A DNA stretch of 31,167 nucleotides, from positions 1-31,167 of the forward strand of contig JBLIRP010000045.1 in assembly GCA_049472355.1 (NCBI GenBank), given 5' to 3'. Below the pieces are notes generated by a model. It made no database searches. It was not told the origin of the DNA and saw only the letters and a program-made list of their open reading frames with translations. Shown piece by piece: positions 8,164 to 31,167 of this stretch. The number at the start of each line of letters is the position of its first letter. Position 1 is the first letter of the stretch. Made by a program: the position numbers and the translations under genes. Source of the DNA: a bacterium. Lineage in GTDB: Bacteria; SZUA-182; DTGQ01; JAFGSM01.

Positions 8164-8373
8164 TGCATCAACCAAGCTTGCCAGGGCGGAGCGCAGCGGA
8201 GCCTCTATGCTCCTCTCCCCAATCCTAAAAAAGGTCACAAACTCACCATCCAAGCTTGCCAGGGCGGAGCGCAGCGGAGCCTCTATGCTCCTCTCCGCAG
8301 TCCCCAAAAGGCTCAATAAACTCACCATCCAAGCTTGCCAGGGCGAAGCGCAGCGACGCTCCTATGCTCCTCC
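8164..8373 (+). repeat. Tandem ~78-bp REP-like repeat, 3 copies
   Basis: CCAAGCTTGCCAGGGCGGAGCGCAGCGGAGCCTCTATGCTCCTCTCC starts at 8172 and 8250, with a variant at 8329; the linkers are also similar to each other. Confidence 0.9.
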
Positions 8374-8519
8374 CTCCATTACACAAAAATCCTCGTGAAC
8401 AGCCATTGAAAAACCCTGTCAACAAGCCCAGCCACCAAGTATTGATGGGTGACAGGCCGATATAAAGGGTAAGGATCACGTGAGGCCTGTAAATCGATGC
8501 AACCTTAAGGGAACCACAC

Positions 8520-10796: not shown

Positions 10797-10899
10797 AGTA
10801 GCGTCGCTGAGATCCGCATGACGAAGTTTGGTTGATGTATTCGCAAGCCTTTTTGGGACTGCAAAGAGGAGCATAGTGCTTCGCTTCGCTCCGCATGAC
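10797..10899 (-). repeat. Diverged inverted copy (about 1.3 units) of the 8164-8373 repeat
   Basis: Reverse complement GCGGAGCGAAGCGAAGCACTATGCTCCTCTTTGCAGTCCCAAAAAGGCT...CATCAACCAAACTT...CAGCGACGCT aligns with copies 2-3 at 8264-8360. Confidence 0.8.
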
Positions 10900-11554: not shown

Positions 11555-12547
11555 ATGAGATTCACGACATGCTGCATACTGCTCACCTGTGCCGCTTTCA
11601 TCCTTTTATCTTCAGCAGCGCCGCCCGCCCTGGCCGTCGGCACACCGGCCGGGACCTTCATCAGCAACAAGGCAACGGCCACCTATACCGTGGGCACGGT
11701 AAGCGGGCTGACCAAGGATAGCAATACATACACCATTACCGTTGATGAGCTGATTGATGCAGATGTTACCTGGGAGGATGCATCCCAAGTGGTCGTGACA
11801 CCGGGCGCCGCATCCCAGGTGCTCACCTTTCTTGTAACCAATACGGGTAATGGCCCGGAAGCCTTCACCCTCTCTGCCCACAGCACCATCACGGGCGATG
11901 ACTTTGACCCGACCCTGGTGGACATCTTCTTTGATGATAATAAGAACGGCGTCTACGACTCGGGCGAGACACAGTACGAGGTGGGAGAGAATGATCCTTT
12001 CATTGCAGCGGATGCCAATGTCACCGTCTTCGTCCTCAACAATATCCCGCTCGATCCCAATGACGGCGACACAGGAGACAGCAGGTTGACCATCACATCC
12101 AAGACCGGAACGGGTGCAGGGACAATCATCGTGGGGGGCGGCCAGGGAGGAACGGATGCGGTCATCGGCTTCTCCGGAGGCACGGACAACGCCACCGGTA
12201 CCTATCTTGTGTCCAGCATAGTCCTGAGCATTGTGAAATCAGCGCAAATACTCGACCCATTCGGAACGGATAGGCCTGTTCCGGGGGCAACGATAACCTA
12301 TTCCATTGTCGTGACCGTGACCGGTTCAGGAACAGCCAAGAATGTCATTATCGAAGACCCCATACCAACGGCGACAGGATATGTGTCGGGCACACTGAAA
12401 TTGAACACAGCGCCTCTATCTGACGATGAGGATGAAGATGCAGGTGATGTCGGGGTAACCAAACCGAACACGGTTACGGTTGCACTAGGGGATTTGACCA
12501 GCGCATCTGCGACACAAACCATCTCTTTTAAGGTCACTATTGATTAA
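11555..12547 (+). CDS. Secreted DUF11 / pilin-like subunit 1
   Basis: GAGGGGG SD; signal peptide ending ALA|VGTPAGTFISNKATATY; middle Ig-like domain (LTFLVTNTGN, DDNKNGVYD loop); C-terminal DUF11 half (IVKS..VPGATITY..IEDPIP..ISFKVTID*). Confidence 0.85.
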   Translation: MRFTTCCILLTCAAFILLSSAAPPALAVGTPAGTFISNKATATYTVGTVSGLTKDSNTYTITVDELIDADVTWEDASQVVVTPGAASQVLTFLVTNTGNGPEAFTLSAHSTITGDDFDPTLVDIFFDDNKNGVYDSGETQYEVGENDPFIAADANVTVFVLNNIPLDPNDGDTGDSRLTITSKTGTGAGTIIVGGGQGGTDAVIGFSGGTDNATGTYLVSSIVLSIVKSAQILDPFGTDRPVPGATITYSIVVTVTGSGTAKNVIIEDPIPTATGYVSGTLKLNTAPLSDDEDEDAGDVGVTKPNTVTVALGDLTSASATQTISFKVTID

Positions 12548-12579
12548 TTAACACACAATACGATGGAGGGAGAGGAGCA

Positions 12580-13080
12580 ATGAAAAAAATATGTACCCGC
12601 GTGGTGCTGCCTGTCATCTTCCTCGCATTCGCCCTGAGTTACCCGGCGATAGCGCAGGAGAAGGGTCATATCGAGCTTACGTGCATTGCCGAAACGGAGA
12701 TCGAGACGGTCAACGAAAAGGGTGAAAAGGAGATACAGCGGGTGGAGGCATCCAAGGTGGTGCCCGGAGACACGGTGATCTATACCATTTTTTACACCGT
12801 TATCGGAAACGATACGGTGAACGATGTTGTCATCAACAACCCCATCCCAGAGCACATGGTCTACAAGGGGGAAACTGCCCTGGGGGAGGGTGCTTCCGTC
12901 ACCTTTTCCATTGACGGTGGAAAGGTCTTCGATTCCCCCGAAAATCTCAAGGTCAAGGATGAGGAGGACAAGGAGCGGGTGGCGATGGCCTCGGAGTACA
13001 CCCACATACGCTGGTCGCTCACCCATGCGGTGAAGCCGGGGCAAACAGGCCAGGTATCCTACCGCGCCCAACTGGAATAG
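12580..13080 (+). CDS. Small secreted DUF11-like protein
   Basis: GAGGAG SD; signal peptide ending AIA|QEK; VVPGDTVIYTI..INNPIPEHMVY..FSIDGG..YTHIRW..VSYRAQLE. Confidence 0.85.
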   Translation: MKKICTRVVLPVIFLAFALSYPAIAQEKGHIELTCIAETEIETVNEKGEKEIQRVEASKVVPGDTVIYTIFYTVIGNDTVNDVVINNPIPEHMVYKGETALGEGASVTFSIDGGKVFDSPENLKVKDEEDKERVAMASEYTHIRWSLTHAVKPGQTGQVSYRAQLE

Positions 13081-13183
13081 AAAAAGGAATATGCCGCCTT
13101 GAGACGCTTTGAGATGCCATGATGCATACGATATACATGGCAACACAGATTTTTGGTATGTATCTAAACAACGGAGGGATGTA

Positions 13184-14293
13184 GTGAAAACCAGGGATTT
13201 CTTCTACACGGCAATTGTTCTCGTATTGACAGGCGCCCTTCTCTTTTGCGTGACGCAAAGGGTTTATGCGGCCGGGACCGCTGCGGGTACCCCCATCTCC
13301 AACAGCGCTACCATTGATTATACGGTTAACGGCATAGAGCAGACTCCCATAGAAAGCTCGCCATCTACATTCGTAGTGGACAACAAGGTGGATCTGACGG
13401 TTGAAACGCAGGGTACAGCACCTGTATCGATAACCCCCGGTGGCACCGAGTATGTCTTGACCTTCCTGGTTAACAATGAAGGCAACAGAATCCAGGATTA
13501 CCTTCTGGCTGCAACTGCTGTGATCACAGGGGGTGAGACCAATTTCGATAATGAATACGACGATTTCGACATGAATGTCCCCGTCGCTATATATGTTGAT
13601 ACGAATAACAATGGCACCTATGAACCGGGAACCGATACTGCCACCTTTATCGATAATCTGGCTGCGGATTCGAGTATTTACGTATTCATCGTAGCCAATG
13701 CACCATTGAGCGCCACAAACGGACAATATGCTTCCTATTACCTCACGGCAACCACTCGTGACGGGGAAACTGGCGGTGAAATCTCCGAATCCGGCACTGA
13801 CGACCCAAATAACATAGATATAGTGTTTGCAGATCCCAATGGTCCTCAGGACGACTCACGAGATGGGAAACATTCCGCTCAGCATGATTACAAGTGTTTA
13901 TCATCGGTACTGACGATTAACAAAACATCGGAAGTCAAATCTGATCCTATTAATGATGAATCGAATCCTAAACGCATTCCTGGCGCTGTCGTCGAGTACA
14001 CCATAACCGTTTCGAATGCTGCCGGAGCAGCGACAGCCACCGGTATAACCGTATCGGACGACCTGAGTACGGAGATTGGCCTCACTAACATTGAATTCCA
14101 TCCTGATGGCTATGCTTCAGGCTACGGTATCCAGGTAACCGCGCCCAATATCAATGGAGGTTCTTCGAAGGATCTCTCAAACGTTTCGGGTGATGACGAG
14201 GGTGCTTTTTCTGCAAATACGGTTACCGTGACCGGAATAGACCTGGATGGAGGGGAATCCGCCACGGTTACGTTCCAGGTCGAAATCCAGTAG
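13184..14293 (+). CDS. Secreted DUF11 / pilin-like subunit 2
   Basis: GTG start after GGAGGG; signal peptide then GTAAGTPISNSATIDY. Paralogous to 11555 (LTFLVNNEGN, DTNNNGTYE); C-terminal INKTS..SDPIN..NPKRIPGAVVEYTITVSN..VSDDL..VTFQVEIQ*. Confidence 0.85.
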   Translation: MKTRDFFYTAIVLVLTGALLFCVTQRVYAAGTAAGTPISNSATIDYTVNGIEQTPIESSPSTFVVDNKVDLTVETQGTAPVSITPGGTEYVLTFLVNNEGNRIQDYLLAATAVITGGETNFDNEYDDFDMNVPVAIYVDTNNNGTYEPGTDTATFIDNLAADSSIYVFIVANAPLSATNGQYASYYLTATTRDGETGGEISESGTDDPNNIDIVFADPNGPQDDSRDGKHSAQHDYKCLSSVLTINKTSEVKSDPINDESNPKRIPGAVVEYTITVSNAAGAATATGITVSDDLSTEIGLTNIEFHPDGYASGYGIQVTAPNINGGSSKDLSNVSGDDEGAFSANTVTVTGIDLDGGESATVTFQVEIQ

Positions 14294-14555
14294 AAAACAT
14301 CGGAATGGTGCCCTGCGATAAAGGTGTGTATCTGCATTAATCCCCTATGATAATGCTGGTTGCTGTTCGCGGAAGGGATAAGGGTTTGCTGCCTTTGAGT
14401 GCATATACCCAGGCCCGTGGCATAGATCCATATAACCACTTAAACAGTGAAGGTGCAGACAAACTGAAGGTACAGGAGCCCTATGGATCAGTAAACAGGT
14501 GAGACATTCAATTACATTAGGAATCAGACAGGATGGCCAACATCCCTGGAGGGAC

Positions 14556-17500
14556 ATGAAGAGACGTTTTTCCCTCCCGCTTTCCGGCATGACCCTGGCA
14601 TGTGCCTTTCGGGGTTGGATAGCGGGATGGATTGAAATCCTCTCCCGGTTTTCCCGGGTATGTCACCGGTCCCTCTATTCCTTGTATTCCTTCCCTGTGC
14701 ATGTCTTTTTCATCCGGGGGCCTCGCAATCCCCCGATGCTTCTCATACTTCTTTTCATCCTTCTTCTTTCATCCTATCTATGTGCTGAAGAGACTAACCC
14801 TTTTCCCAGGAAGGTCCTCAATACGGCTACTGCATCCTTTCGGATCGGCGATGAAGGCGCGCAGACGGCCCAGTCCAATACCGTGGCCATGGCGATCGAG
14901 TTCCGCACACCCTCGGAGCTGAGCTTCCGGCAATATGCGCCTTATGTCTCCTGCGGGGAATCATTCAGCGTCGCAGTAACGGAATATGATGCCGGCGGCA
15001 GCGGGGATTTCCTCACTATGGGAGCCCCGGTCATATTCGGCACACCCCTTGACATCAGCGGACCGGTTACCCTTACCCAAGGGGGCGTATACCACAAGGG
15101 CGAGCCCATCTTCCTGGTGCTCAGGGATCAGGATCAGGATGTCGACCCTGACCGCAGGGATACGGTCCTGGTGACCATAGCCATCGATGCCCTCGGCGAG
15201 AAGGAGGTCCTTCGTCTCACGGAATCAGGGGAAAACACCGGTGTTTTTGCCGGCTATATCCAGACCAGCAGTATTTCCCCTGCCATGTATGACGGCCTCC
15301 TCTCTGTTGCCGACGATGTCAGGGTGGTGGCGACATACTCCGACAAGTGGGACGGGACGGACACGGATGCATCCGCCGCACTGGTGGACCCATACGGAAT
15401 CATCTTTGACAGCATGACCGGGCTTCCGGTGAACGGGGCAACCATCACCTGCATCGATGCGGATACCGGCCTCCCTGCCGCGGTTTTCGGGGATGACGGG
15501 GTAAGCGTCTTCCCTTCCACCGTTATCTCGGGCGGGAGCGTCAAGGACAGCAGCGGCAGGGAGTATCTCTTTGAACCGGGCACATTCAGGTTCCCGTTCA
15601 TAGCCCCGGGCAATTACCGCTTCGAGATCACCCCCCCTGCGGATTATTTCTTCCCCTCCACCGTATCCGTGAGCATCATCCAGTCACTCCCCGGTGCGCC
15701 CTTTGCCATAGACACGGGATCGCTCGGCGGGATATTCGTGGTGAATCCGGGCCCTGTCGTGCATATCGATATCCCCCTCGACCCTGCTGCATCGGCCCTT
15801 TATGTGAGAAAAACCGCATCCAAACATACGGCTTCGCACGGTGACTTCATCCAGTTCATGGTGAGTGTTGAGAATCCGAGCGCTGCCGCCACCGTTCCGG
15901 GTGTGGAGGTCAAGGACCTGCTCCCCCGGGGATTCCGCTACCAGAAGAATTCAACCAAAATAAACGGAGAGCAAGGGGAAGAGCCCCTCATTTCACCCGA
16001 TGGCCGCAGCATGACCCTTGCCATCGGGGACCTCCCGGCCCATTCCAAGGCGAGTGTGAGCTATGTGGCGGAGGTGGCCGCAGGCGCCAGGATCGGTGAT
16101 GCGGAGAACCTCGCATGGGCAACGGGCGCAGGGGGCGAGAATTCCAATATAGGTAAGGTTACCGTGAAGGTCCGCCATGAGTTCATGCGCTCTGCGTGCA
16201 TCATCCTCGGGCAGGTGACAATCGAGGGATGTGCGGACAACGAAACCACGCAAAAGGAAAACGGCAAAAGGGAGGACAGGGGACAGGTCCCGGCCCCCTG
16301 CGTGCTTCCGGGTGTGCGGGTGTATCTTGAAAACGGCTCCTCGGTGATCACCGATAAAAACGGGATGTATCATTTTGAAGGGGTTGACCCGGGCGTGCAC
16401 GTGGTGCAGATGGATGTGGAGAGTATCCCTGAGGAATACCAGCCGAAGGAGGGGAGAAACGACCGGTTTGCGGGGAATGCCTTCTCCCGGTTCGTGGATC
16501 TCCAGGCAGGCACCATGTGGAGGGCGGACTTCACGGTCTGTCCGAAAAGGCCGCCGCAGGGCGAGGCATTCATGTCGATTGAGGCCGAATCCCCGGACGA
16601 TGGAGAAACAAGAGGATATTATGTTCATATGGGCGGCACGGGTGTGCCGCTGCGGAATGTCCGCATTGTGCTGATGCTCCCGGAGGGTGTTGCCTACGAG
16701 GAGGGGAGCGCCCTCCTCGATGCGATGCCGGTTCCCCCGGAGATTGCCGATGGCGCCCTCACCTTTCGAATCGGGGACACCCAGGCGGAATGGATGAAGA
16801 ACCTCCGGGTAAATGCCTGCCTGTCCGATGCAAAGGGTGGGCAGGGCATGCTAAGGGGCGTGATGCTTTTTGATACGGAGACGCTGCGCAACCAGCGCAC
16901 ACCCGTTGCCGGGATAGACGCGCATGCCAGAGAAGGTGACAGCGGGCTCATGAAGATGCAAACCGAGGGGGCTGCACAGGGAAAGGGAAAAGGGACAGCA
17001 CAACCTGATCAGGACACCGGCGCGAAGGGGGCTTCCTTTGACGATGCATGGCTTGAGTCAGCGCCATCCGGGTTTGAATGGCTCTTTCCCGCAGAGGGGT
17101 ATCTCCCCTCCATCCCGAGCATCAAGGTGGTGATAAAACATCACCCTTCCGAGCGGATCAGCCTGCTCCTTGACGGGAAGGAGGTGGATCCCCTGAATTT
17201 CGACACCCTGATCAAGAACAAGTCGGGCACGGCAGCGCTCAGCGTATGGCGGGGGATCGATCTGCACGAGGGTGACAACCGCTTCGAGGCCGTGCTCCTG
17301 AACAGCAGGGGAGAGGGTGCAGGCCGCATTGCACGTTCCATCCATTACTCGGATATACCTGTCGATGCGGAGGTCCGGGAAGGGGATTCCGCCCCCTTTG
17401 CCGACGGGAAGACCCCTCCGGTGATAGCCATACGCCTCACCGACAAATATGGCTATCCGGCACGGCAGGGCATTATCGGCGAGTTTTCCATAGATCCACC

Positions 17501-20153
17501 CTATGCCGCATTGCAGGAGTCTGAGGTGTACCAGAATGTTCAGTTGTCCGGCATGAACCAACACCGCCCGCGCTATACGGTGGGCAGGGATGGGATCGCC
17601 CTGTTGAGGCTGCAACCCACCTCCTCCACCGGCGAGGCGGTCATCCGGCTGAATCTCGCAGGGGGCGAGCGGGAGATCAGGACATGGCTGAAGCCCGCTG
17701 CCAGGGAGTGGATACTCGTGGGGCTTGCACAGGGGGGCATCGGGTACGCGACCGTGCGCGATCATATGGAAGGCTCAAATGAGACCGGCATGGAGGAGGG
17801 GATGATCACCGATGGCGGTGTGGCATTCTTCGCAAAGGGGCAGATCAAGGGGAAATGGCTGATGACCATCGCCTATGACAGCGAGCGGGATACGCACAGG
17901 GAGGATAAAAACCTCCACCAGACCATCGACCCCGATGCCTACTACGGCCTGTATGGCGATTCCACGAGCCAGGTACCTGAGGCGGCAAGCGCCGAGAAGC
18001 TGTATCTCAGGATAGAGCGCGGGCAGTTCTACGCCCTGTTCGGGGATTACGACACCGGCCTGACGGTCACCGGGCTTTCCCGCTATAGCCGGAGCCTCAC
18101 CGGATTCAAGACCGAGGGGCAGTCGGAATATTACACCTTCAGCGCGTTCGTGAGTGAAACAAACCAGGCCTTTGTCAAGGACGAGATACGGGGAAACGGC
18201 ACCTCGGGCCTCTACCACCTCTCCAGGAGCAACATCGTCCAGGGCTCCGATAAGGTGACCATCCAGACGCGTGACCGTTTCCGCAGTGAAAGGATCATTT
18301 CCGTCCGGCAGCTCACCAGGCACCTCGATTATGCCATCGATTATGAGACCGGCTCCCTCTATTTCAAGCAGCCGGTCATGAGCAAGGATGAGCAGTTCAA
18401 CCCCGTTTACATCGTTGTGGATTACGAATCCTATGACGAGGGGGACCGGTCGGCGAATTACGGAGGCAGGGGTGCGGTGAGGCTCATGGACCGGAGGCTT
18501 GAGATCGGTGCGACCCACATCCACGAGGGCAGGGTGGGTGGTGAGGGGAACCTCTATGGCGTGGATGTGACCTATGACCTTTTCCATGGGAACAGCATCA
18601 AGGCGGAGGTTGCGCACTCCAGCACCGATTTTGGCGGTGCAAAGAGGCAGGGGGATGCCTACAGCGCCGAGGTCATCCACCAGTCGGATCAGGGGCATGG
18701 ATCCGTATATATCCGCGAGGAACAGGACGGCTTCGGCCTCGGCCAGCAGAACGGGGGCGAGACAGGGACGCAGAAGGTGGGTGTGGAGGCATCCAGAAAG
18801 GTGAATGAGCAGGTGACCCTTACGGGACAGGCATATCGCCATACATTCCGCTCCACAGGCGCGGTGCGTGACGTTCTTGAGGGGGATGGCACATACCGGA
18901 ACGGGGGCTATTCCATCAAGGCCGGCATGAGGGGCGCGGCGGACGAGCTGGGGGATGGCAGGGTGAACAGATCCAATCAGCTTCTGACAGGCGCCGGATA
19001 CGATGCATTCGGCAATCGTCTGAATCTCTCGCTGGAACATGCACAATCGGTGGGCGGGGATAACGGCAGCGGGGATTTTCCCACCCGCACCAGGCTGGGC
19101 GCCGATTATCACATTGCAGCGGATACGACCCTTTTCGGTGTTCATGAAATAACCGACGGAAGGTCGGAGGATGCGCAGATCTCCCGCATAGGGCTGAAGA
19201 CAAGGCCATGGTCGGGGGGGGAGATGCAGACCTCCATGCAGCAGGATATCAACGAGAACGGCCCCAGGACCTTTGCCAATCTCGGTTTGCGCCAGACATG
19301 GCAGGTCACGGAGCAATGGGCTCTGGACGGAAGCCTTGACCAGGCAAGGACAATCAAATCCCCGGGGAATACCCCCTTGAATCTCAATGTCCCTCAGGCA
19401 TCCGGCGGGGGGGATGATTTCACCTCCCTCTCCCTGGGCGCTACCTATACAAGGCAGAAGTGGTCATGGACCTCCCGTGTCGAGCGTCTCATCTCAGACA
19501 CCAGCCACAAATGGGGGCTTTTCACCGGCATCCTTGGCGAACCCCGCCATGGGCTTGGCCTGTCGCTCAGCGCGCAGGTGTTCCATACCGAGCATGCCAC
19601 GGGAGCAGAGGACAGCACGGGCGATATCCGGCTCTGCCTCGCCTATCGGCCAACGCATACGGATTGGATAATCCTTGACCGTCTGGACATCCTCTTTGAC
19701 AGCCGCACGGATGAAACTACGGACCTCGACGGTTGGAGGGTCGTCAATCACCTGAATGCGAATTACACCCGCGAAAAGACGCAGATCTCCCTCCAGTACG
19801 GGGCAAGGTATGTCATAGAGACCATGGATGGCGACAGGTACAGGGGATATACCGACCTTGCAGGCATCGAGGGGCGTTATGATATCACGAAACGTATGGA
19901 TGTGGGGATCCGGGTGAATGTCCTGCACTCATGGAATGCCCGGCAGTTCGATTATTCCTATGGCCCCTCCGTCGGCATGTGCGCAGCGAAAAACCTCTGG
20001 GTCAGCATCGGATACAATATCACCGGATTTACCGACAGGGACTTTTCATACGCGAATTACACGGCACAGGGTCCGTATCTGCGCTTCCGTTTCAAGATAG
20101 ACCAGACAAGCGGCCAGGATATCACAAGGCTGATTCGGATGCTTTTCTTATGA
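14556..20153 (+). CDS. Very large outer-membrane protein: Ig/DUF11/SdrD-B-like domains plus predicted C-terminal beta-barrel
   Basis: ATG 14556 after GGAGGG (alternative 14736 gives a compact signal peptide ending LCA|EE). Complete DUF11 (YVRKTAS..KDLLP..ENLAW..SN), Cna-B/SdrD-like GVRVYLENG..TDKNGMYHF, and a long Gly/aromatic alternating-strand C-terminal region ending LWVSIGYN..GPYLRFRFKIDQ. Confidence 0.8.
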   Translation: MKRRFSLPLSGMTLACAFRGWIAGWIEILSRFSRVCHRSLYSLYSFPVHVFFIRGPRNPPMLLILLFILLLSSYLCAEETNPFPRKVLNTATASFRIGDEGAQTAQSNTVAMAIEFRTPSELSFRQYAPYVSCGESFSVAVTEYDAGGSGDFLTMGAPVIFGTPLDISGPVTLTQGGVYHKGEPIFLVLRDQDQDVDPDRRDTVLVTIAIDALGEKEVLRLTESGENTGVFAGYIQTSSISPAMYDGLLSVADDVRVVATYSDKWDGTDTDASAALVDPYGIIFDSMTGLPVNGATITCIDADTGLPAAVFGDDGVSVFPSTVISGGSVKDSSGREYLFEPGTFRFPFIAPGNYRFEITPPADYFFPSTVSVSIIQSLPGAPFAIDTGSLGGIFVVNPGPVVHIDIPLDPAASALYVRKTASKHTASHGDFIQFMVSVENPSAAATVPGVEVKDLLPRGFRYQKNSTKINGEQGEEPLISPDGRSMTLAIGDLPAHSKASVSYVAEVAAGARIGDAENLAWATGAGGENSNIGKVTVKVRHEFMRSACIILGQVTIEGCADNETTQKENGKREDRGQVPAPCVLPGVRVYLENGSSVITDKNGMYHFEGVDPGVHVVQMDVESIPEEYQPKEGRNDRFAGNAFSRFVDLQAGTMWRADFTVCPKRPPQGEAFMSIEAESPDDGETRGYYVHMGGTGVPLRNVRIVLMLPEGVAYEEGSALLDAMPVPPEIADGALTFRIGDTQAEWMKNLRVNACLSDAKGGQGMLRGVMLFDTETLRNQRTPVAGIDAHAREGDSGLMKMQTEGAAQGKGKGTAQPDQDTGAKGASFDDAWLESAPSGFEWLFPAEGYLPSIPSIKVVIKHHPSERISLLLDGKEVDPLNFDTLIKNKSGTAALSVWRGIDLHEGDNRFEAVLLNSRGEGAGRIARSIHYSDIPVDAEVREGDSAPFADGKTPPVIAIRLTDKYGYPARQGIIGEFSIDPPYAALQESEVYQNVQLSGMNQHRPRYTVGRDGIALLRLQPTSSTGEAVIRLNLAGGEREIRTWLKPAAREWILVGLAQGGIGYATVRDHMEGSNETGMEEGMITDGGVAFFAKGQIKGKWLMTIAYDSERDTHREDKNLHQTIDPDAYYGLYGDSTSQVPEAASAEKLYLRIERGQFYALFGDYDTGLTVTGLSRYSRSLTGFKTEGQSEYYTFSAFVSETNQAFVKDEIRGNGTSGLYHLSRSNIVQGSDKVTIQTRDRFRSERIISVRQLTRHLDYAIDYETGSLYFKQPVMSKDEQFNPVYIVVDYESYDEGDRSANYGGRGAVRLMDRRLEIGATHIHEGRVGGEGNLYGVDVTYDLFHGNSIKAEVAHSSTDFGGAKRQGDAYSAEVIHQSDQGHGSVYIREEQDGFGLGQQNGGETGTQKVGVEASRKVNEQVTLTGQAYRHTFRSTGAVRDVLEGDGTYRNGGYSIKAGMRGAADELGDGRVNRSNQLLTGAGYDAFGNRLNLSLEHAQSVGGDNGSGDFPTRTRLGADYHIAADTTLFGVHEITDGRSEDAQISRIGLKTRPWSGGEMQTSMQQDINENGPRTFANLGLRQTWQVTEQWALDGSLDQARTIKSPGNTPLNLNVPQASGGGDDFTSLSLGATYTRQKWSWTSRVERLISDTSHKWGLFTGILGEPRHGLGLSLSAQVFHTEHATGAEDSTGDIRLCLAYRPTHTDWIILDRLDILFDSRTDETTDLDGWRVVNHLNANYTREKTQISLQYGARYVIETMDGDRYRGYTDLAGIEGRYDITKRMDVGIRVNVLHSWNARQFDYSYGPSVGMCAAKNLWVSIGYNITGFTDRDFSYANYTAQGPYLRFRFKIDQTSGQDITRLIRMLFL

Positions 20154-20292
20154 AACTGCGAATGTCGAATGTTGAATGTCGAATGTTGAATGTTGAAGTG
20201 AAAGTGAAACGCACATGAGCCGGATGAAACTGCGAATGTCGAATATCGAATGTAGAATGTAGAAGTGAATGTAGAAGTGAAACGCAGATGAG
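20150..20292 (+). repeat. Two ~74-bp units built from GAATGTY heptamers
   Basis: ATGAAACTGCGAATGTCGAAT... at 20150 and 20224, each ending GAAGTGAAACGCA(C/G)ATGAG-like; unit 1 overlaps the stop of the large gene. Confidence 0.85.
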
Positions 20293-20340: not shown

Positions 20341-23052
20341 ATGAAAGGGATGCACTTTCAAGAGGACAACCGAGCAATGGACCGGACCGTTTGCAGCGCA
20401 ATACAGATAACGAAGATCATTATTGCATGCGCACTCATCATCCTTCCCCTTTTTTGCTTTCTCCTTCTGGAGGGTGCAGACCCAGTCTATGCCGGGACAC
20501 CGGTGACCTTGTACCGAAGCTTTGCGGGAAATATCGATTTCACCAGCACCGGGGGGACATTGAGGACACAGCCGAATCCGGTCGATGCCTGCGCGGTGAC
20601 GGACCATGGCTCGGCACCCCTTTTCGATATCCCTTCCGGCGCCGTGATCAGGGCGGCATATCTCTACTGGGCAGGCTCATATGCCGACCGAAAGGGATCA
20701 ACGCGGCGAACCCCCGATTATGACATAACCTTCGAGGCATATAACCTGACCGCAGACCGCACATTCACCGAGACGTTCCCCTTCTCAGGGACGAACCATG
20801 ACTTTTTCTGCGGTTTTGCCGATGTAACCCCGATCGTTGCCGCAAAAGGGAATGGCACCTATTCATTCGGGGGGCTGAGCGTCAACAGCGGCGCCCCTCA
20901 TTGCGGCAGCAAGGGTGTGGTGGCGGGCTGGGCACTGGTGGTCGTGTTTGAGCATCCGGGGGAGCACTTCCGGGTCATCAACCTGTTCGACGGGTTCCAG
21001 TACTACTGGGGGAGCCAGATCATCCTGACCCCGGGCAACTTCCGCATTCCCGTTTCTCCCATAGAGGGGAGGCATGCGCACATAAGCTGGGAGGGGGACG
21101 AGGAGAATTCAAATCCCTTGAACGGCTATACGGAGGGCCTCATCTTCAACGGAAATGTGCTCACGGACGGCCTCAGCCCGGTCAACAACCAGTTCAACTC
21201 AACGATCAACAGCCTGGGTGTGGATGACAGCTACGGCGTGGATATCGACACGTACGATATCAGCGCCTACCTTCATGCAGGCGACACCTCGGCCACCACC
21301 ATATACCGCTCGGGCGAGGATATGGTGCTCCTGAGCGCAGAGATCATCTCGGTGACCAACACCCCTGTGGCGGACCTTGCGATTGCCAAGAATCATGCGG
21401 GGGGATTCACCGTCGGAGAAAACGGCGCGTATACCATTGTAGTCAGCAACAACGGTCCCCATGATGCGGAGGGCCCCATTACCGTGAGCGATACCCTGCC
21501 TGCAGGTCTTGATTATGTTACAAGCTCCGGCACCGGCTGGACGGCGGACACATCCGCATTGCCGGTCATCACCTGGACACATCCCGGCCCGCTGCCCGAA
21601 GGGGAGGGATTGCCTCCCGTAACATTGACCGTGTCCGCAGGTCCTGCGGCCGTCCCGCAGGTAACGAATACGGTGACCGTCTCGAGCCCCACCTTCGACA
21701 ATCAGGCCGGCAACAACAGCAGCAGCGACCCGACCGCGGTCCTCGGCCCTGACACTGCCAACAAGCCGCTGTATCTGTATGGAAGCCCGGGGCTTCAGCT
21801 TTCCCGGACCCCGCCCCAGGGGTCACCGGCATCGGTGACCATCCAGGGAAACGGGAGATCCGTTCAATGGAGCATGACACCGGCGACCGCAGCCCCTCTC
21901 ACCCTCGCCGCAGGGCTTCACCCGGTCAGGCTCTGGATCAGCCGTGATCGCAAGGGGACATCCCGGACGCTTACCGTGGCGATTGCCTCCACCGGCGCCA
22001 CATCCGGTCCCATCGGGGACCCGGTCACCAGAAGCTTTACCATTTCCCATGGGCGCCGGGGCACCACACAGATACCTTTCAATGTGTCCCTGCCCTCGGA
22101 AGTCACCCTCTTGCCGGGCTCCCGGATCACCTTGACCGTAACCAACGGATCCTCTCATAAGGATCATTCCGTGACCGTGCATACCTCCTTTGAGGACGAA
22201 AGCTCACGGGTCGATCTGAATGCCTCGACGGTCATCGATATCCATACCGCAGGGGCATACGATGCGCCCTATCCCGGAGGGGCTGTCCCGCCCTGTTTTC
22301 TCCCCGGCTCCCCTGTGCATATCAGGGCCATGGTAGCTGATCCCTTCGGGAGCTTCGATATAAGCGGCGTCACCATCACCATCATCAATCCGGAAAATTT
22401 CATCGTCATTGCAAACGCCCCTATGCCAAAGGTATTCGATTCAGGGGGATCGGATGCAGTCTATGAATATCCGTATGATCTGCCTTCATGGCCCACCGGT
22501 ACATGGCAGGCGATCATCAGGGCCATGGAGGGGACAGAGGACCTGGTGAACGACGAATATGTCTTTTCATTCCCCGTCGGCGGACCGGAGATCCTGGTGA
22601 TGAAAAGCGTCTACACCCTTTCGGATCCATACAACGAAAATGTCAATCCCAAGGCGATCCCCGGTGCTACCATGCTCTATACGATTACCATCACCAATCA
22701 GGGGATCGGCCCTGTGGACGGCAACACCATGGTGATCACAGACCCCGTCCCCGAACATACATCCCTGTTTGTGAACGATATTGATGCCCCCGGCTCAGGG
22801 CCCCTCCTCTTCCTGGACGGGACGGTCCCGAGCGGCCTGACCTATACATTCACCAGCCTGGAGAGCGCAACGGATGATATCGACTTCTCCAATGACGGCG
22901 GGATGACATACACCTACGTGCCCCTATCGGATGCCCAGGGATTTGACGGGAATGTCACCCATATTCGGGTGTCTCCCCAGGGTGCCTTCCAGGGGAGCAC
23001 CACACCGCCCGCCCCATACGCTGACCTGAAATTCAAGGTGCGAGTGAACTGA
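20341..23052 (+). CDS. Secreted multidomain DUF11 adhesin-like protein
   Basis: Signal peptide ending VYA|GTP (start may be 20377). N-terminal beta-sandwich with AAYLYWAG, GWALVVVFE, DIDTYDIS (DUF3344-like); complete DUF11 (ADLAIAK..SDTLP..TNTVTV..NNSSSD); C-terminal DUF11 half (VMKSV..SDPYN..NPKAIPGATMLYTITITN..TDPVP..LKFKVRVN*). Confidence 0.82.
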   Translation: MKGMHFQEDNRAMDRTVCSAIQITKIIIACALIILPLFCFLLLEGADPVYAGTPVTLYRSFAGNIDFTSTGGTLRTQPNPVDACAVTDHGSAPLFDIPSGAVIRAAYLYWAGSYADRKGSTRRTPDYDITFEAYNLTADRTFTETFPFSGTNHDFFCGFADVTPIVAAKGNGTYSFGGLSVNSGAPHCGSKGVVAGWALVVVFEHPGEHFRVINLFDGFQYYWGSQIILTPGNFRIPVSPIEGRHAHISWEGDEENSNPLNGYTEGLIFNGNVLTDGLSPVNNQFNSTINSLGVDDSYGVDIDTYDISAYLHAGDTSATTIYRSGEDMVLLSAEIISVTNTPVADLAIAKNHAGGFTVGENGAYTIVVSNNGPHDAEGPITVSDTLPAGLDYVTSSGTGWTADTSALPVITWTHPGPLPEGEGLPPVTLTVSAGPAAVPQVTNTVTVSSPTFDNQAGNNSSSDPTAVLGPDTANKPLYLYGSPGLQLSRTPPQGSPASVTIQGNGRSVQWSMTPATAAPLTLAAGLHPVRLWISRDRKGTSRTLTVAIASTGATSGPIGDPVTRSFTISHGRRGTTQIPFNVSLPSEVTLLPGSRITLTVTNGSSHKDHSVTVHTSFEDESSRVDLNASTVIDIHTAGAYDAPYPGGAVPPCFLPGSPVHIRAMVADPFGSFDISGVTITIINPENFIVIANAPMPKVFDSGGSDAVYEYPYDLPSWPTGTWQAIIRAMEGTEDLVNDEYVFSFPVGGPEILVMKSVYTLSDPYNENVNPKAIPGATMLYTITITNQGIGPVDGNTMVITDPVPEHTSLFVNDIDAPGSGPLLFLDGTVPSGLTYTFTSLESATDDIDFSNDGGMTYTYVPLSDAQGFDGNVTHIRVSPQGAFQGSTTPPAPYADLKFKVRVN

Positions 23053-23121: not shown

Positions 23122-23463
23122 TTATAGTAAATAAAAGGGTTTTTTCCCGGCAATGACTATGAAGGGGGATTGTACCGATTCCCTCCATGGACTCGGCAGT
23201 CCTTCCATACCCTATGATTGACGACGTGAGGGGTGGTGTTTAACCCCTCATGCACACAGAAGGCGCTCCCTTTCCAGAAGCCTGTTCGATGAATCGAGAC
23301 GAAGGGAGGTGAGAAGTAACCATCCGGTATAAGGCATCCTTTGAACACCTGTCGATTCGTTCCACAAGGAGGTATATGCAGTTCCTTTAAACACACATGA
23401 ATTGCACCTTACGTGAGTTCCGTTTTGCGTTGTCCACGTTTTTTTGCATTTAGGAGGTTTGCC

Positions 23464-24015
23464 ATGTTTGGAAAAATAAACATTTTGAAATGGGGGATAA
23501 TGGCACTTGTAATCCTGACGGCGGTGGTACTCATCAGTGCACCATCGGCACGTGCCCAGTACTGGTCCGCCCTTCCCCCGTATAATCTTCTCTGGCCGCT
23601 CTGGTCTCCCGCACTCTCTCCCGTCGATGCAGTCACCGGTCTTGCGACCCCCCTGATTTCCCAATTGACCGCCGGCACCAGCCTGCCTGTTCAACCGAGC
23701 CTCGCATGGGACCCTGCGCGTCAATTTCCGTGGCTTCTGTACAATATCCCCGGGATACTGGGAGGCGGCATAACCTATTTCGATCCCTATTTCGGTCTCA
23801 ATCCATGGCCCCCGTCATATCTCCTCGATTCCTCCGGGCTGGCCGCACCCCTGACTCTCCCTCTCGATTTCGGGCTCCTTCCCCCCACGGACCTCGCTGC
23901 ATTCGGTCCATTCGTCGGGCAGGCCAATCTCTCATTCCTCGCGACCTATCCCACGGCGAACTTCGGCATTCCGCTGGCGAGCTTGCTGACGGCAGCCCGG
24001 ATATGGGGGCTGTAG
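23464..24015 (+). CDS. Secreted Pro/Leu/Trp-rich hypothetical protein
   Basis: AGGAGG SD, ATG 23464, signal peptide ending ARA|QYWSALPPYNLLWPLWSP; codon usage looks native. Confidence 0.8.
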   Translation: MFGKINILKWGIMALVILTAVVLISAPSARAQYWSALPPYNLLWPLWSPALSPVDAVTGLATPLISQLTAGTSLPVQPSLAWDPARQFPWLLYNIPGILGGGITYFDPYFGLNPWPPSYLLDSSGLAAPLTLPLDFGLLPPTDLAAFGPFVGQANLSFLATYPTANFGIPLASLLTAARIWGL

Positions 24016-24400: not shown

Positions 24401-25711
24401 ATGAAATCGACCGACACAACCTCCCGGCGAAAAACCGCGTTTCCCCATAAGAGGTTTCTTACCCTTGCCGAGGAATATGCCCACGGTCTCTTGAGCCAAT
24501 GCATGATCGTCGAAGGGCGGAATCCCGAACGTATGATCCGCAGCAGGGCATTCCTGAGCATGCTCATCGCCAATGCACGGATGTTGGAGGACTTTTTGGA
24601 TGATCATGGGGCACGGCGGAATAAGCGATGGTTCTATTTCAGGGAGCTCGTGGCCACCGCCCGGGGATTTGGACAGACCGGGTATCTGATCGTCTTCATT
24701 CAAAAACGATATCCCCCGGACAGTATCGAGCTGAAGGATTTTACGGAATTCTTCCATCGGCTGGACCAGGTCCAGCATTTCCACGAAAAGGCCCTTGCCC
24801 ACATCTTCAAAAAACTGTTGCTGCGCGCACGGCAACTTGGTATCCAGCCTTCTAAAAAAGACTTCGACGTGGTTGAGGAGGATACGTCCCTTGAGCACCT
24901 CGCCCTTCCGATTACCAAGGTGCGGACATTTTACGGCAACGAAGAGAAGGATATCGCGAAGATCTGCTCCCTCTACCAGAACCTTGCCCAAAACTTTGAC
25001 CCGATCGCCTGTCACACCGATAAACAAAAGGTTAAAAAAATAAAACAGATTGTTCCCGATGTGATCAACGAGGAATGCATCCGGAATTTTGAATTGGAGA
25101 TGCACAACCTCGAATCCGTCTATGACACCTATGTCAATAACCGATCCCGTGAGGACAAGGATCCCCGGCTGGTGCATCTGCGGAATTATATCTCCATTCC
25201 CCTGTTACTCCTGGAGGCGACCCGGGCGTGGACGCATTTTTACGAACGTCATCCGAAGATACATCAGGAGATACACCGGGAGATCCAGACGGAGTGCATC
25301 CTTGACTATATCGTCACCTGGGCATTGAACTGTTGCAGGAAGTTCGTGGCGTACGGGAAGAACCTCGCCGACGAGCTTCTGCACGATTATACCTCGAAGG
25401 ATTCCATTGAATTGCCTATCCCCAGAAACCTCGGCTTTCACCTGAGGCCGGCCACCCTCGTCGCAAAGATCGTCAATCACTACGGTTCAGAGGTATCCAT
25501 GTATGTGGGCGAAGACCGGTTCGATGCAAGCAGCATCCTGAGCATCACCTGGGCAGGCGGGAAATTGGCCAGGGACAACATACAAACGGTGACCTTTGTC
25601 GGTGATAAGAGGGCGCTTGAGGACCTGAAAATCCTGGCGAGCGTCAATTACGGAGAGGATACCATGGGAACGGATCAACCCTTGCCCAAGGAGCTCTCCT
25701 ACCTGCGATAG
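24401..25711 (+). CDS. Long HPr-domain protein (uncharacterised N-terminal region + C-terminal HPr)
   Basis: C-terminal LGFHLRPATLVAKIVNHYGSEV..FDASSILSI carries the HPr His15 and Ser46-region motifs; about 330 aa of helical-looking sequence precede it. Confidence 0.85.
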   Translation: MKSTDTTSRRKTAFPHKRFLTLAEEYAHGLLSQCMIVEGRNPERMIRSRAFLSMLIANARMLEDFLDDHGARRNKRWFYFRELVATARGFGQTGYLIVFIQKRYPPDSIELKDFTEFFHRLDQVQHFHEKALAHIFKKLLLRARQLGIQPSKKDFDVVEEDTSLEHLALPITKVRTFYGNEEKDIAKICSLYQNLAQNFDPIACHTDKQKVKKIKQIVPDVINEECIRNFELEMHNLESVYDTYVNNRSREDKDPRLVHLRNYISIPLLLLEATRAWTHFYERHPKIHQEIHREIQTECILDYIVTWALNCCRKFVAYGKNLADELLHDYTSKDSIELPIPRNLGFHLRPATLVAKIVNHYGSEVSMYVGEDRFDASSILSITWAGGKLARDNIQTVTFVGDKRALEDLKILASVNYGEDTMGTDQPLPKELSYLR

Positions 25712-28972: not shown

Positions 28973-29134
28973 AGTGTGACGCAAATATGCTCTTATTGGG
29001 TGACGGCGTGCCGCAGGAACAGCCCAATACCCCTCTTGACGCCTGTGAGGAATCGATTGTTCCTGCCCTTTAGGCTTCCAACTTTTCAATCCCGATATGC
29101 CATTAATTCTACAAATACTCAGAAGGAAATGAAA

Positions 29135-29212
29135 GTGGGCGTGCTGTTCGGCTTCTTCCCCGCGCAAAAGGCCGCCCGCATCAACCCCATCGATGCCCTC
29201 AGGCACGAGTAG
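29135..29212 (+). pseudogene. C-terminal remnant of a MacB/FtsX-family ABC permease
   Basis: VGVLFGFFPAQKAARINPIDALRHE* is the typical MacB C-terminus; upstream sequence is unrelated and AT-rich. Confidence 0.8.
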
Positions 29213-29354
29213 ATACATCAAGCATGCTTCACATATGGGAAAAAGCCCATCCGCCAATAGCCAGCCACCGGATGCCTTAAATCCAGTTTTTTTGACTATG
29301 TCACGAATCCATGTTATCATAATATCAAATTTTGTAAGCATGGAGCTATTCAAT

Positions 29355-29599
29355 ATGGTAAGAACTCAGGTTCAATTAACAGAGAAACAAGCCGAGCTTA
29401 TAAAAAAATTGGCTAAGCAAAAAGGTGTATCTATGGCAGAGATTGTTCGTCAAGGGATAAATGCCATTTTTGAAGAAGAGAAGGCTATTATTACTGAAAA
29501 AAACAAAAACGTGCACTTGCTGCAGTAGGCAAATTTCATTCCGGTCTAAGTGATATTTCTGAAAAACACGATGAATATCTGGAAGAGACCTATAAGTGA
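29355..29599 (+). pseudogene. CopG/RHH (VapB-like) antitoxin, frameshifted
   Basis: MVRTQVQLTEKQAELIKKLAKQKGVSMAEIVRQGI continues in the -1 frame after the A7 run (29497-29503) as QKRALAAVGKFHSGLSDISEKHDEYLEETYK*. Confidence 0.8.
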
Positions 29600-29655
29600 G
29601 CATAATCTTTATTGACACATCAGCATTATACTTAAATGTTGCTCGAAATTTCTAA
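29596..29655 (+). pseudogene. vapC: Truncated PIN-domain (VapC) toxin N-terminus
   Basis: GTG overlaps the antitoxin TGA (GTGA). MSIIFIDTSALY is the first PIN motif; unrelated sequence and a stop follow. Confidence 0.7.
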
Positions 29656-29990
29656 CAAAGCCATGAACGGCTTATTACATAAGGGGTTTCAGGGATCAAG
29701 CCTCTTAGAAGCCTGAAAATACTGACAAGGAGAGGAAGTGATCTCCCTGCTGCGTATCCACGCAAAGATCTCGCATTGTTTAAGTATCAACAATGTTTTT
29801 AGTGATCACAGGGAGATCATCATAAAGTATATCACCAAGACCAGGAGACAGTAAACCCTGTTTTCTCCTAAACGAAAAATAATTTAATTTCAATGAGTTA
29901 TTTATTGTACTGGACATCGCTCACTGGTTAATATACAGTAGAATCGCCTCCGTGCGGTTGTTATCATCAACAAACAAAACGGAGGCATTC

Positions 29991-31167
29991 ATGAATTACA
30001 GCGAGTATAGAGATTGGGTATCCTGTTATATAGGGGTAAAGGGGCGGATCAAAAAGGTCTGCACCGGATACATCCTCTTTCTCATGGTGTCGGTGCGCAA
30101 GCATTCATTGGATGAGGCATCCCGCCTTTTCGAGCACAGCACATCAGGATACAGCAAGTTTTTAAAAAACCATGCGGGATGAGCGGTGAAGAGTTTAGCC
30201 CATCTATCCCGCAAGCAGGCAAAAAGGATAGCCAAGGACCTGAAGCATTTGGCAGCCGATAAACTCCCGTGGAAGATTGCGATTGTCGTTGACAGCACAA
30301 TACAAAAAAGATCGACCAGGCATACGGACAATGCCCAGCGATTCAACCATGGAAAGGGGTTTGTCATCGGCCATCAATGGACCAATAGCATCATGCTGCT
30401 CAACGACACGGTCGTGCCGCTTCCCCCGATCCCCTTTCATACCAGGAATTATTGCCAAAAACATGCCCTTGAGTATACAACGGAACATGACTTGGTTGCC
30501 GCATATATAAAGGACCTGCAGTTAGAAGACTATATCGGGCCATATCGTGATCAGGAGGTAGTGGTCCTTGCCGACAGCGGCTATGACAACAAAAAGATCC
30601 AGAATGCGGTTGCACAAAGGAAGTGGAATTTTATTATCTCCCTGGGCAAGACCCGGAGTGTGAAGTCCGAGAAGACCTATGCAGATACCCCTGAATCGAA
30701 GGGTTGGATCACGGTGGCTGATCTTTTCAGGAATCATCGCAGGCTCAAGTGGCAGACTATTCGTATTGCTGCGAATAGTTCGAAAAGGAAGCGAATTGAT
30801 TTTCGCGCCCGACAACTCGTTGGCTATCTGCGCTCCGTGGGGATGGTCAAATTGGTTTGTTCGGAATTTAAGAAAAGACCGGATGGTCGAAGAAAATACT
30901 TGGCCTGCAATGATCTTAACGCAACGCTTCGGCACATCGTGATGGGGTACCGCATGCGATGGCGTATTGAGATCTTCCATAAGGAGGTGAAAATGCACCT
31001 TGGGTTTGAGGATGTATCCACCCGATGGTTCCAATCGGTAACGGCCCATGTCCACTGGGTGTACTGTGCCTACATCCTGCTCCATGCCCCTCCCCCCGGG
31101 ATCTCGGACCAGGCTCAGTCCCTGGTCGAAAGGCAGCGCAAGATAAGGCAGATAATTGACTCAAGGC
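29991..31167 (+). mobile_element. DDE transposase, IS4/IS701-like, with in-frame TGA at 30180-30182; runs off window
   Basis: GGAGG SD and ATG 29991. The same frame continues past the stop: IAIVVDST, VLADSGYD, YRMRWRIEIFHKEVK (Y-2-R-3-E-6-K signature). Confidence 0.88.

Follow-up and report, generated by a model that had tools for sequence, protein, structure and literature searches.

A five-gene bacterial cluster probably encoding a surface fibre of split CLIPPER/DUF11 domains, polymerised covalently without sortase

The window analysed here is a stretch of 31,167 nucleotides (nt), positions 1-31,167 of the forward strand of contig JBLIRP010000045.1 (assembly GCA_049472355.1), from a bacterium of the lineage SZUA-182; DTGQ01; JAFGSM01. 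It contains a cassette of five co-oriented genes on the + strand, one copy of each in a fixed order, encoding pilin 1, a secreted protein of 166 amino acids (aa), pilin 2, an 1884-aa outer-membrane protein and a 903-aa adhesin candidate. All five products score above the cut-off of TIGR01451, a model of the DUF11-type repeat, and three of them also above that of PF01345, pilin 1 falling marginally below it (24.5 against 24.6) and the 166-aa protein being below it as well. The cluster, from a bacterium with an outer membrane, probably specifies a surface fibre in which a split CLIPPER/DUF11 domain would give rise to a covalent polymer without the action of a sortase.

The DUF11 domain has been renamed CLIPPER, and was solved with an internal Lys715-Asn806 bond and Asp748 as the presumed catalyst (PMC12617251). 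The domain was modelled here by a hidden Markov model (HMM) of 467 intact repeats, 465 of which derive from 17 giant tandem-repeat proteins and two from this cluster; no pilins were included. Set against the model, each pilin has a C-terminal acceptor, which lacks the last two strands of the domain and carries Lys and Asp, and an N-terminal hairpin, which corresponds to those two strands and carries the Asn. The cut in the domain thus precedes these two strands and separates the Asn from Lys and Asp. A preliminary description of the locus had listed acceptor Lys and Asp residues in pilin 1 (K228, D268), pilin 2 (in INKT and VSDD) and the adhesin (K755, D801), and a donor Asn in pilin 1 (N38), in pilin 2 (in ISN) and in a 'VLN' motif. 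All were found at the places cited, those of pilin 2 being K272, D317 and N65 and the last one N108 of the 1884-aa protein; the span assigned to them, 11636-14293, is too narrow, as N108, K755 and D801 fall outside it, and the D-x-x-P-type Asp ascribed to the acceptors has to be given up for pilin 2, where no Pro follows the Asp.

Pilin 1 (330 aa, 11555..12547) starts with a signal peptide (residues 1-27, judged by eye), followed by the donor hairpin (residues 28-63, 11636..11743), by a middle domain with a complete CLIPPER-like immunoglobulin (Ig) fold, whose first strand is without Lys (residues 64-220, 11744..12214), and by the incomplete acceptor (residues 221-330, 12215..12544). Residues 223-330 match HMM positions 10-100 (62 bits), after which the chain ends, and the hairpin region, residues 30-65, aligns with positions 102-137 at 8.9 bits, a weak match if taken alone; in all the 82 rows evaluated, only 0-3 residues follow the last strand of the acceptor. 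K228 (12236), D268 (12356) and N38 (11666-11668) fall, in separate halves, on the Lys, Asp and bond-forming Asn columns of this CnaA-like domain, those of the solved triad K715/D748/N806 (PMC12617251).

Conservation was evaluated on 325 partly redundant rows, comprising database proteins of 280-460 aa and open reading frames (ORFs) from the loci. K228 and D268 are each kept in 320 rows, N38 in 295 and the full triad in 288. None of the other eight Lys columns in pilin 1 is kept in more than 17% of the rows, and the triad is therefore more than chance would give. Two 'Asn-less' rows, L019 and L027, are upstream ORFs and not pilin-1 orthologues; they are included in these counts and were left out of the co-loss count given below.

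Both halves of pilin 2 (13184..14293) match the HMM in the same way. Its ORF is open from 13109, the likely start being a GTG at 13184, located after a GGAGG; residue numbers are counted from the TTG at 13109. The hairpin, with N65 (13301), is followed by a middle domain and by the acceptor, with K272 (13922) and D317 (14057). In an alignment of 66 of the 73 pilin-2-like ORFs, selected by a length filter, N65 and K272 are invariant (66/66) and D317 is found in 65 rows, with Glu in the other one; the adjacent D318 is present in 12/66, so that D317 alone of the two is conserved. N57 of pilin 1 was also considered as the bond Asn and was rejected, because the pilin 2 column is Asn in 13/66 rows only and N38 lies on the bond column. 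Pilin 2 is a candidate shaft subunit, with pilin 1 as a candidate adaptor.

An AF2 model of the pilin 1 monomer (pLDDT 95, pTM 0.77) features the hairpin, the complete middle Ig domain and the acceptor. Pilin 1 had no match among solved structures when compared by sequence, and a Foldseek search with the model only returned generic tandem Ig proteins, with TM values of at most 0.30. By way of the middle domain (residues 64-220), PDB 9IFR was matched with Z 8.2 and a root-mean-square deviation (rmsd) of 3.3 over 113 aligned residues, many Ig folds being found at similar Z; no solved fibre of this kind was present among the 50 matches listed. The same domain contains a conserved loop rich in Asp, Asn and Gly (D127, N129, N131, Y134; residues ~125-148, window 11924-12000), which we take to resemble a calcium-binding loop.

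The 166-aa protein (12580..13080) is a secreted, acceptor-only CLIPPER protein, with C35 in the Lys column and N87 in the Asp column. Among its 75 family members the Lys column never contains Lys, Thr or Ser being found in most relatives; the register of this column was set from the alternating hydrophobic pattern, and an adjacent column has Lys in 14 rows. The Asp column is Asn in 67 sequences and Asp in eight. As the family keeps the signature of the fold in the absence of the Lys, the fold does not need it. The protein is foremost a candidate for a reversible, non-covalent holder, or chaperone, of donor hairpins, a tip cap being the alternative. It also shows a weak match to SipW substrates (E 0.055), far under cut-off.

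The outer-membrane protein (1884 aa, 14499..20153, likely start ATG 14736) carries an N-terminal hairpin with N108 (14820), an intact CLIPPER copy at residues 431-561 (K438, D473, N537), further domains and a C-terminal barrel; apart from the intact copy, it contains the donor half only. The hairpin matches the HMM weakly (0.9 bits), but the match is borne out by N108, kept in 60/65 family rows. The C-terminal 817 residues (17700..20150) are predicted to form a very large beta-barrel of ~36-37 long strands, as counted from the DSSP string, with a plug-like insert of six strands after about the eighth one (AF2 model, pLDDT 79, pTM 0.77). The best structural matches, all partial, are SlpA (Z 15.2, rmsd 11.8, 441 aligned residues), AlgE, FimD (Z 14.8, rmsd 10.0, 364 aligned) and PapC (Z 13.9, rmsd 6.1, 299 aligned); by Foldseek, TM values did not exceed 0.28. 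This protein is a candidate for the anchor and export pore of the fibre.

The tip adhesin candidate (903 aa, 20341..23052) contains a DUF3344 head, an intact CLIPPER copy at residues 343-470 (K350, D384, N443) and, at its C-terminus, an acceptor carrying K755 (22603) and D801 (22741); a donor hairpin was not detected in it by sequence and HMM comparison. In related adhesin C-termini Lys and Asp are kept in 14/16 sequences, one of the 16 being a pilin-2 fragment, and are lost together in two. Adhesin-type acceptors with both residues were also observed on contigs apart from the cassette (L094, at G020:C36, L097 and L098), one of them ending an open frame of 3356 codons. Tips may be interchangeable, and some may be encoded elsewhere in the genome. 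Two blocks of short repeats with 7-nt units are located between the barrel and adhesin genes (window 20136-20264).

A whole, contiguous CLIPPER domain within one chain is found in the cluster only as the two intact copies of the adhesin and of the barrel protein, the acceptors stopping at about position 100. Proteins with the donor half only (the barrel protein) and with the acceptor half only (the adhesin and the 166-aa protein) occur in the same cassette.

Gene linkage was evaluated at 80 genome loci from many phyla, using as denominators the loci with enough DNA. Downstream of pilin 1, the 166-aa gene was found at 71/71 loci, pilin 2 at 64/64 and the barrel gene at 59/59. The adhesin was found at 14/80 loci and, in three further genomes inspected, on a separate contig. 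The cassette is patchy within the phylum of its host, being present in 3/20 genomes. The pilin-1 profile is matched, at E up to 1e-30, by 1067 clusters (50% identity), some of which are tandem-repeat adhesins; the protein atlas yielded only clusters labelled DUF11 or bearing no name, apart from two isolated porin-like rows. The host genome, 87.5% complete, contains Omp85 genes; no match was found in it to the sortase family PF04203, for which a control search was positive in three Gram-positives, and none to the usher family PF00577, either in it or in the barrel protein, the E. coli control being positive. The pilins stop at their last beta-strand, without a hydrophobic tail, and no C-terminal sorting signal is thus seen. 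A megaplasmid carries the cassette in Novosphingobium sp. THN1 (L090:13617-19721), where the genes of pilin 2 and of the barrel protein are broken into several pieces; comparable breaks were observed at L024, L049 and L078, and may be sequencing errors.

Association of the two halves was modelled with three copies of pilin 1. The model scored 0.67, against 0.00 for the best of three controls; the score mark, roughly applicable here, is reached by 20/30 solved homo-pairs and by 1/23 single chains. At least 95% of the contacts are shared by separate runs, and the partner pLDDT is at least 91. The copies form an open head-to-tail chain, where residues 28-66 of one copy lie on residues 218-330 of the next: copy 1 contributes donor residues only, copy 2 acceptor-side residues only and copy 3 both. 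The contact pairs listed include 264-44', 266-40', 268-40' and 271-36', the N38 strand running antiparallel to that of D268, which contacts A40 of the neighbour; N38, K228 and D268 are all inside the listed interface ranges. For pilin 1, the donor is thus predicted to be inserted in trans and to bring its Asn to the Lys and the acidic residue of another subunit.

Length variants bear on the same point. Nine minimal relatives of 160-187 aa, from two lineages, have nothing but a signal peptide, the hairpin and the acceptor, and all keep the triad. Their Asn-to-Lys spacing is 34-36 residues, the same as from one repeat to the next in intact stalks (median 35.5, range 25-52, 376 pairs), which leaves no spare linker for closure of the chain on itself; moreover, the two ends of an Ig domain in a stalk lie at opposite poles, so that a minimal pilin cannot close in this way. 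At the other extreme, 14 pilins from Thermus, Meiothermus and Deinococcus have 730-765 residues (~740) between Asn and Lys, with Lys and Asp kept in 14/14 and Asn in 13/14, one being truncated. Both kinds of variant argue against closure within one chain. In a natural fusion, P0122, known as a single sequence, a pilin hairpin comes immediately after an adhesin-type acceptor. The Thermus thermophilus HB8 locus on pTT27 (L093:11433-25789) comprises a small acceptor gene, an 888-aa pilin, a second donor-bearing protein, a 1795-aa protein and a DUF11 protein, the architecture of the partners being read from the T. brockianus locus L092.

These data make it very probable that the hairpin complements the acceptor of another chain, and the assembly in trans considered in the preliminary description is supported; the published BsaA precedent, discussed below, had been missed, as had the fourth acceptor, i.e. 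the 166-aa protein, which is inside the span considered and lacks the Lys and mostly also the Asp. The opposite arrangement, in which the hairpin would close its own acceptor with an internal bond or small closed swapped rings would form, is very improbable. The hairpin has a pLDDT of ~97 in the AF2 monomer, although this is a confidence value and not a placement, and CnaA domains made from distant parts of one chain do exist (table in PMC12617251); against it stand the open chain of the trimer model, the minimal pilins and the ~740 residues separating the halves in the Thermus-type ones, and the coexistence of donor-only and acceptor-only proteins in the cassette. Given complementation between chains, a covalent Lys-Asn lock is quite likely. 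That the strands complement one another without covalent links, the three residues being relics or structural, is rather improbable. Some DUF11 domains are indeed without the bond (PMC12617251), N38 is at times lost, and in 45/467 intact repeats Asp and Asn persist after loss of the Lys, so that these two residues alone are no proof of a bond, for which the Lys is the one strong sign. Yet this Lys, buried in the first strand, is retained by 320/325 and 66/66 sequences of the two pilins, and by 0/75 of the acceptor-only protein, which has the same fold signature.

The links could also be covalent plugs in a short chain of fixed length, made of adhesin, pilin 1, pilin 2 and barrel protein in about one copy each, i.e. 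a fibrillar adhesin in parts and not a long pilus. The single copy and fixed order of the genes would fit such an arrangement, as would the reach that the long multi-domain Thermus subunits would provide without polymerising, and the co-loss data point both ways: of four genomes with an Asn-less pilin 1, two, which are alike and probably represent one event, have an adhesin without Lys and Asp, as for a dedicated adaptor, but the other two keep both residues. Since copies of pilin 1 complement one another in the model and each pilin contains both halves, the short chain is considered unlikely. Several observations weigh against a covalently polymerised fibre. The fibre itself is predicted from genes and models. 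N38 is replaced in 30/325 rows, where Lys and Asp are mostly retained; the persistence of Asp and Asn in Lys-less repeats and the mixed outcome of the co-loss comparison point the same way. The K228-N38 pair is not among the 25 best contact pairs of the trimer model, in which the geometry of the triad is inferred from contacts and not from distances; the calibration of the score is a two-copy and not a three-copy one, and resemblance to CLIPPER folds already solved may raise the score. A mean-field coevolution analysis (326 rows, Neff ~262) placed 7 of the 150 top pairs between hairpin and acceptor, not above noise, and was discarded.

In the covalent fibre here preferred, subunits would be exported by Sec, as suggested by the signal peptides, and the N-terminal two-strand hairpin of each would complete the unfinished Ig domain at the C-terminus of another one, as the sequence match and, for pilin 1, the model indicate. 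The donor Asn would be set in the core beside the acceptor Lys and Asp, and the Lys-Asn isopeptide would form spontaneously, in the way known from intact CLIPPER domains. The domain content would impose a polarity, with the acceptor-only adhesin at the tip and a shaft made of both pilins, and the barrel protein, as a donor only, would plug the last acceptor and tether the chain to the outer membrane. In the weakest step of the scheme, the Lys-less 166-aa acceptor might hold donor hairpins reversibly until exchange.

The family and the Lys-Asp-Asn columns of the cluster are those of the published CLIPPER/DUF11 domain (PF01345, PDB 9IFR, PMC12617251). That report deals with whole domains repeated along a single chain, whereas here the cut precedes the Asn strand and different chains share the domain; the main text of the paper does not contain the word 'donor' (PMC12617251). 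Strand donation combined with an autocatalytic Asn-Lys lock has been described for BsaA of Clostridium perfringens, a member of the TasA family, mutants of which lose the oligomers (10.1101/2024.11.04.621531), and the principle is therefore not new. BsaA resembles the system proposed here in that an N-terminal donor segment completes the sheet of a neighbour and a donor Asn is joined to an acceptor Lys next to an acidic catalyst, without sortase; it differs in its TasA fold, Glu catalyst, single donor strand of ~11 residues, SipW peptidase and Gram-positive host. The cassette features instead a split CLIPPER domain, an Asp as the presumed catalyst, a two-strand hairpin of ~36 residues, multi-domain subunits and an outer-membrane barrel of its own. 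Its pilins match DUF11 and not the TasA (peptidase M73) families, and no peptidase gene is present among its five genes.

In chaperone-usher pili the N-terminus of the next subunit completes an incomplete Ig fold and the tip adhesin is an acceptor only, a periplasmic helper and a plugged outer-membrane barrel being encoded in one operon. In type V pili of Bacteroidia, lipoprotein precursors expose a C-terminal donor strand upon cleavage by a protease; in the present model the donor is N-terminal, and none of the type V pilus Pfam families was hit by the cassette proteins, whose signal peptides were judged by eye. Chaperone-usher pili differ in that a single strand is bound non-covalently and the chaperone donates a strand (PMC11821415), whereas the helper looks here like an acceptor; the barrel is predicted to be much larger and has a donor hairpin of its own, and no usher family match is found in the genome. 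No PapD-like chaperone was matched by the cassette proteins, the only ones searched, the small secreted partner being a DUF11 acceptor. Intermolecular isopeptide bonds without a known sortase are described for an archaeal thread, where an Asn is joined to the N-terminal amine of subunit n+2 (PMC9715654), and for the A-ENA sporesilk, made of helical hairpins (PMC13111695); as portrayed in the accessible parts of these reports, neither has the CLIPPER fold or is tied to an outer-membrane barrel. Other candidates proved to be different systems: CryoSeek TLP-1 (PMC11494351), in which one strand comes from subunit n+4 and whose report, in its accessible part, never mentions isopeptides; the fibres of a glycofibril preprint and tafi (PMC11821415); and the Litorilinea DUF11 hook, a single chain of 6596 aa. 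A literature search, with subscription papers and supplements largely outside its reach, found no paper on this cassette. To judge from gene names, a link to the 'S-layer-like array' proteins of Deinococcus radiodurans (PMC5382914) may exist. The chemistry is thus already known; the split CLIPPER domain, the two-strand donor, the dead acceptor and the giant barrel bearing a donor were not found in the literature search.

Other features of the window lie outside the cassette. Three copies of a 72-nt element, spaced by 78-79 nt, are located in an intergenic region (8166-8394) and resemble REP-type sequences; a partial inverted copy is found 2.5 kb away (10846-10876). Directly downstream of the adhesin, a Pro/Leu-rich ORF of 200 aa with a likely signal peptide (23413-24015) has no Pfam or NCBIfam match and was not found to belong to the cassette. 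The window also encodes a 436-aa protein with an HPr domain at its C-terminus, after a long unassigned N-terminal part (24401-25711), and contains an open-ended ORF resembling, by eye, a DDE transposase (30186-31166), which adjoins a low-GC stretch (29001-30000).

Whether the cluster represents an undescribed class of pili, spread over many phyla, is evenly balanced: such pili would be assembled without enzymes from the tag-and-catcher halves of a CLIPPER domain, with a catalytically dead acceptor as an inverse chaperone shielding the donor hairpin, a barrel of ~36 strands that exports the chain and then ends it with its own hairpin, and interchangeable tips docking by way of a common acceptor. 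If this holds true, diderm bacteria would possess a pilus that is covalently continuous, forms without enzymes and brings its own assembly machine, and a very common set of genes annotated as 'DUF11 / hypothetical' would be explained. A tandem adhesin stalk would have turned into a polymer by the shift of one cut point, and natural, thermostable tag-and-catcher pairs, as well as a barrel of unusual size, would become available. The system is directly testable, since Thermus thermophilus HB8 carries a version of it on pTT27 and minimal subunits of 180 aa exist.

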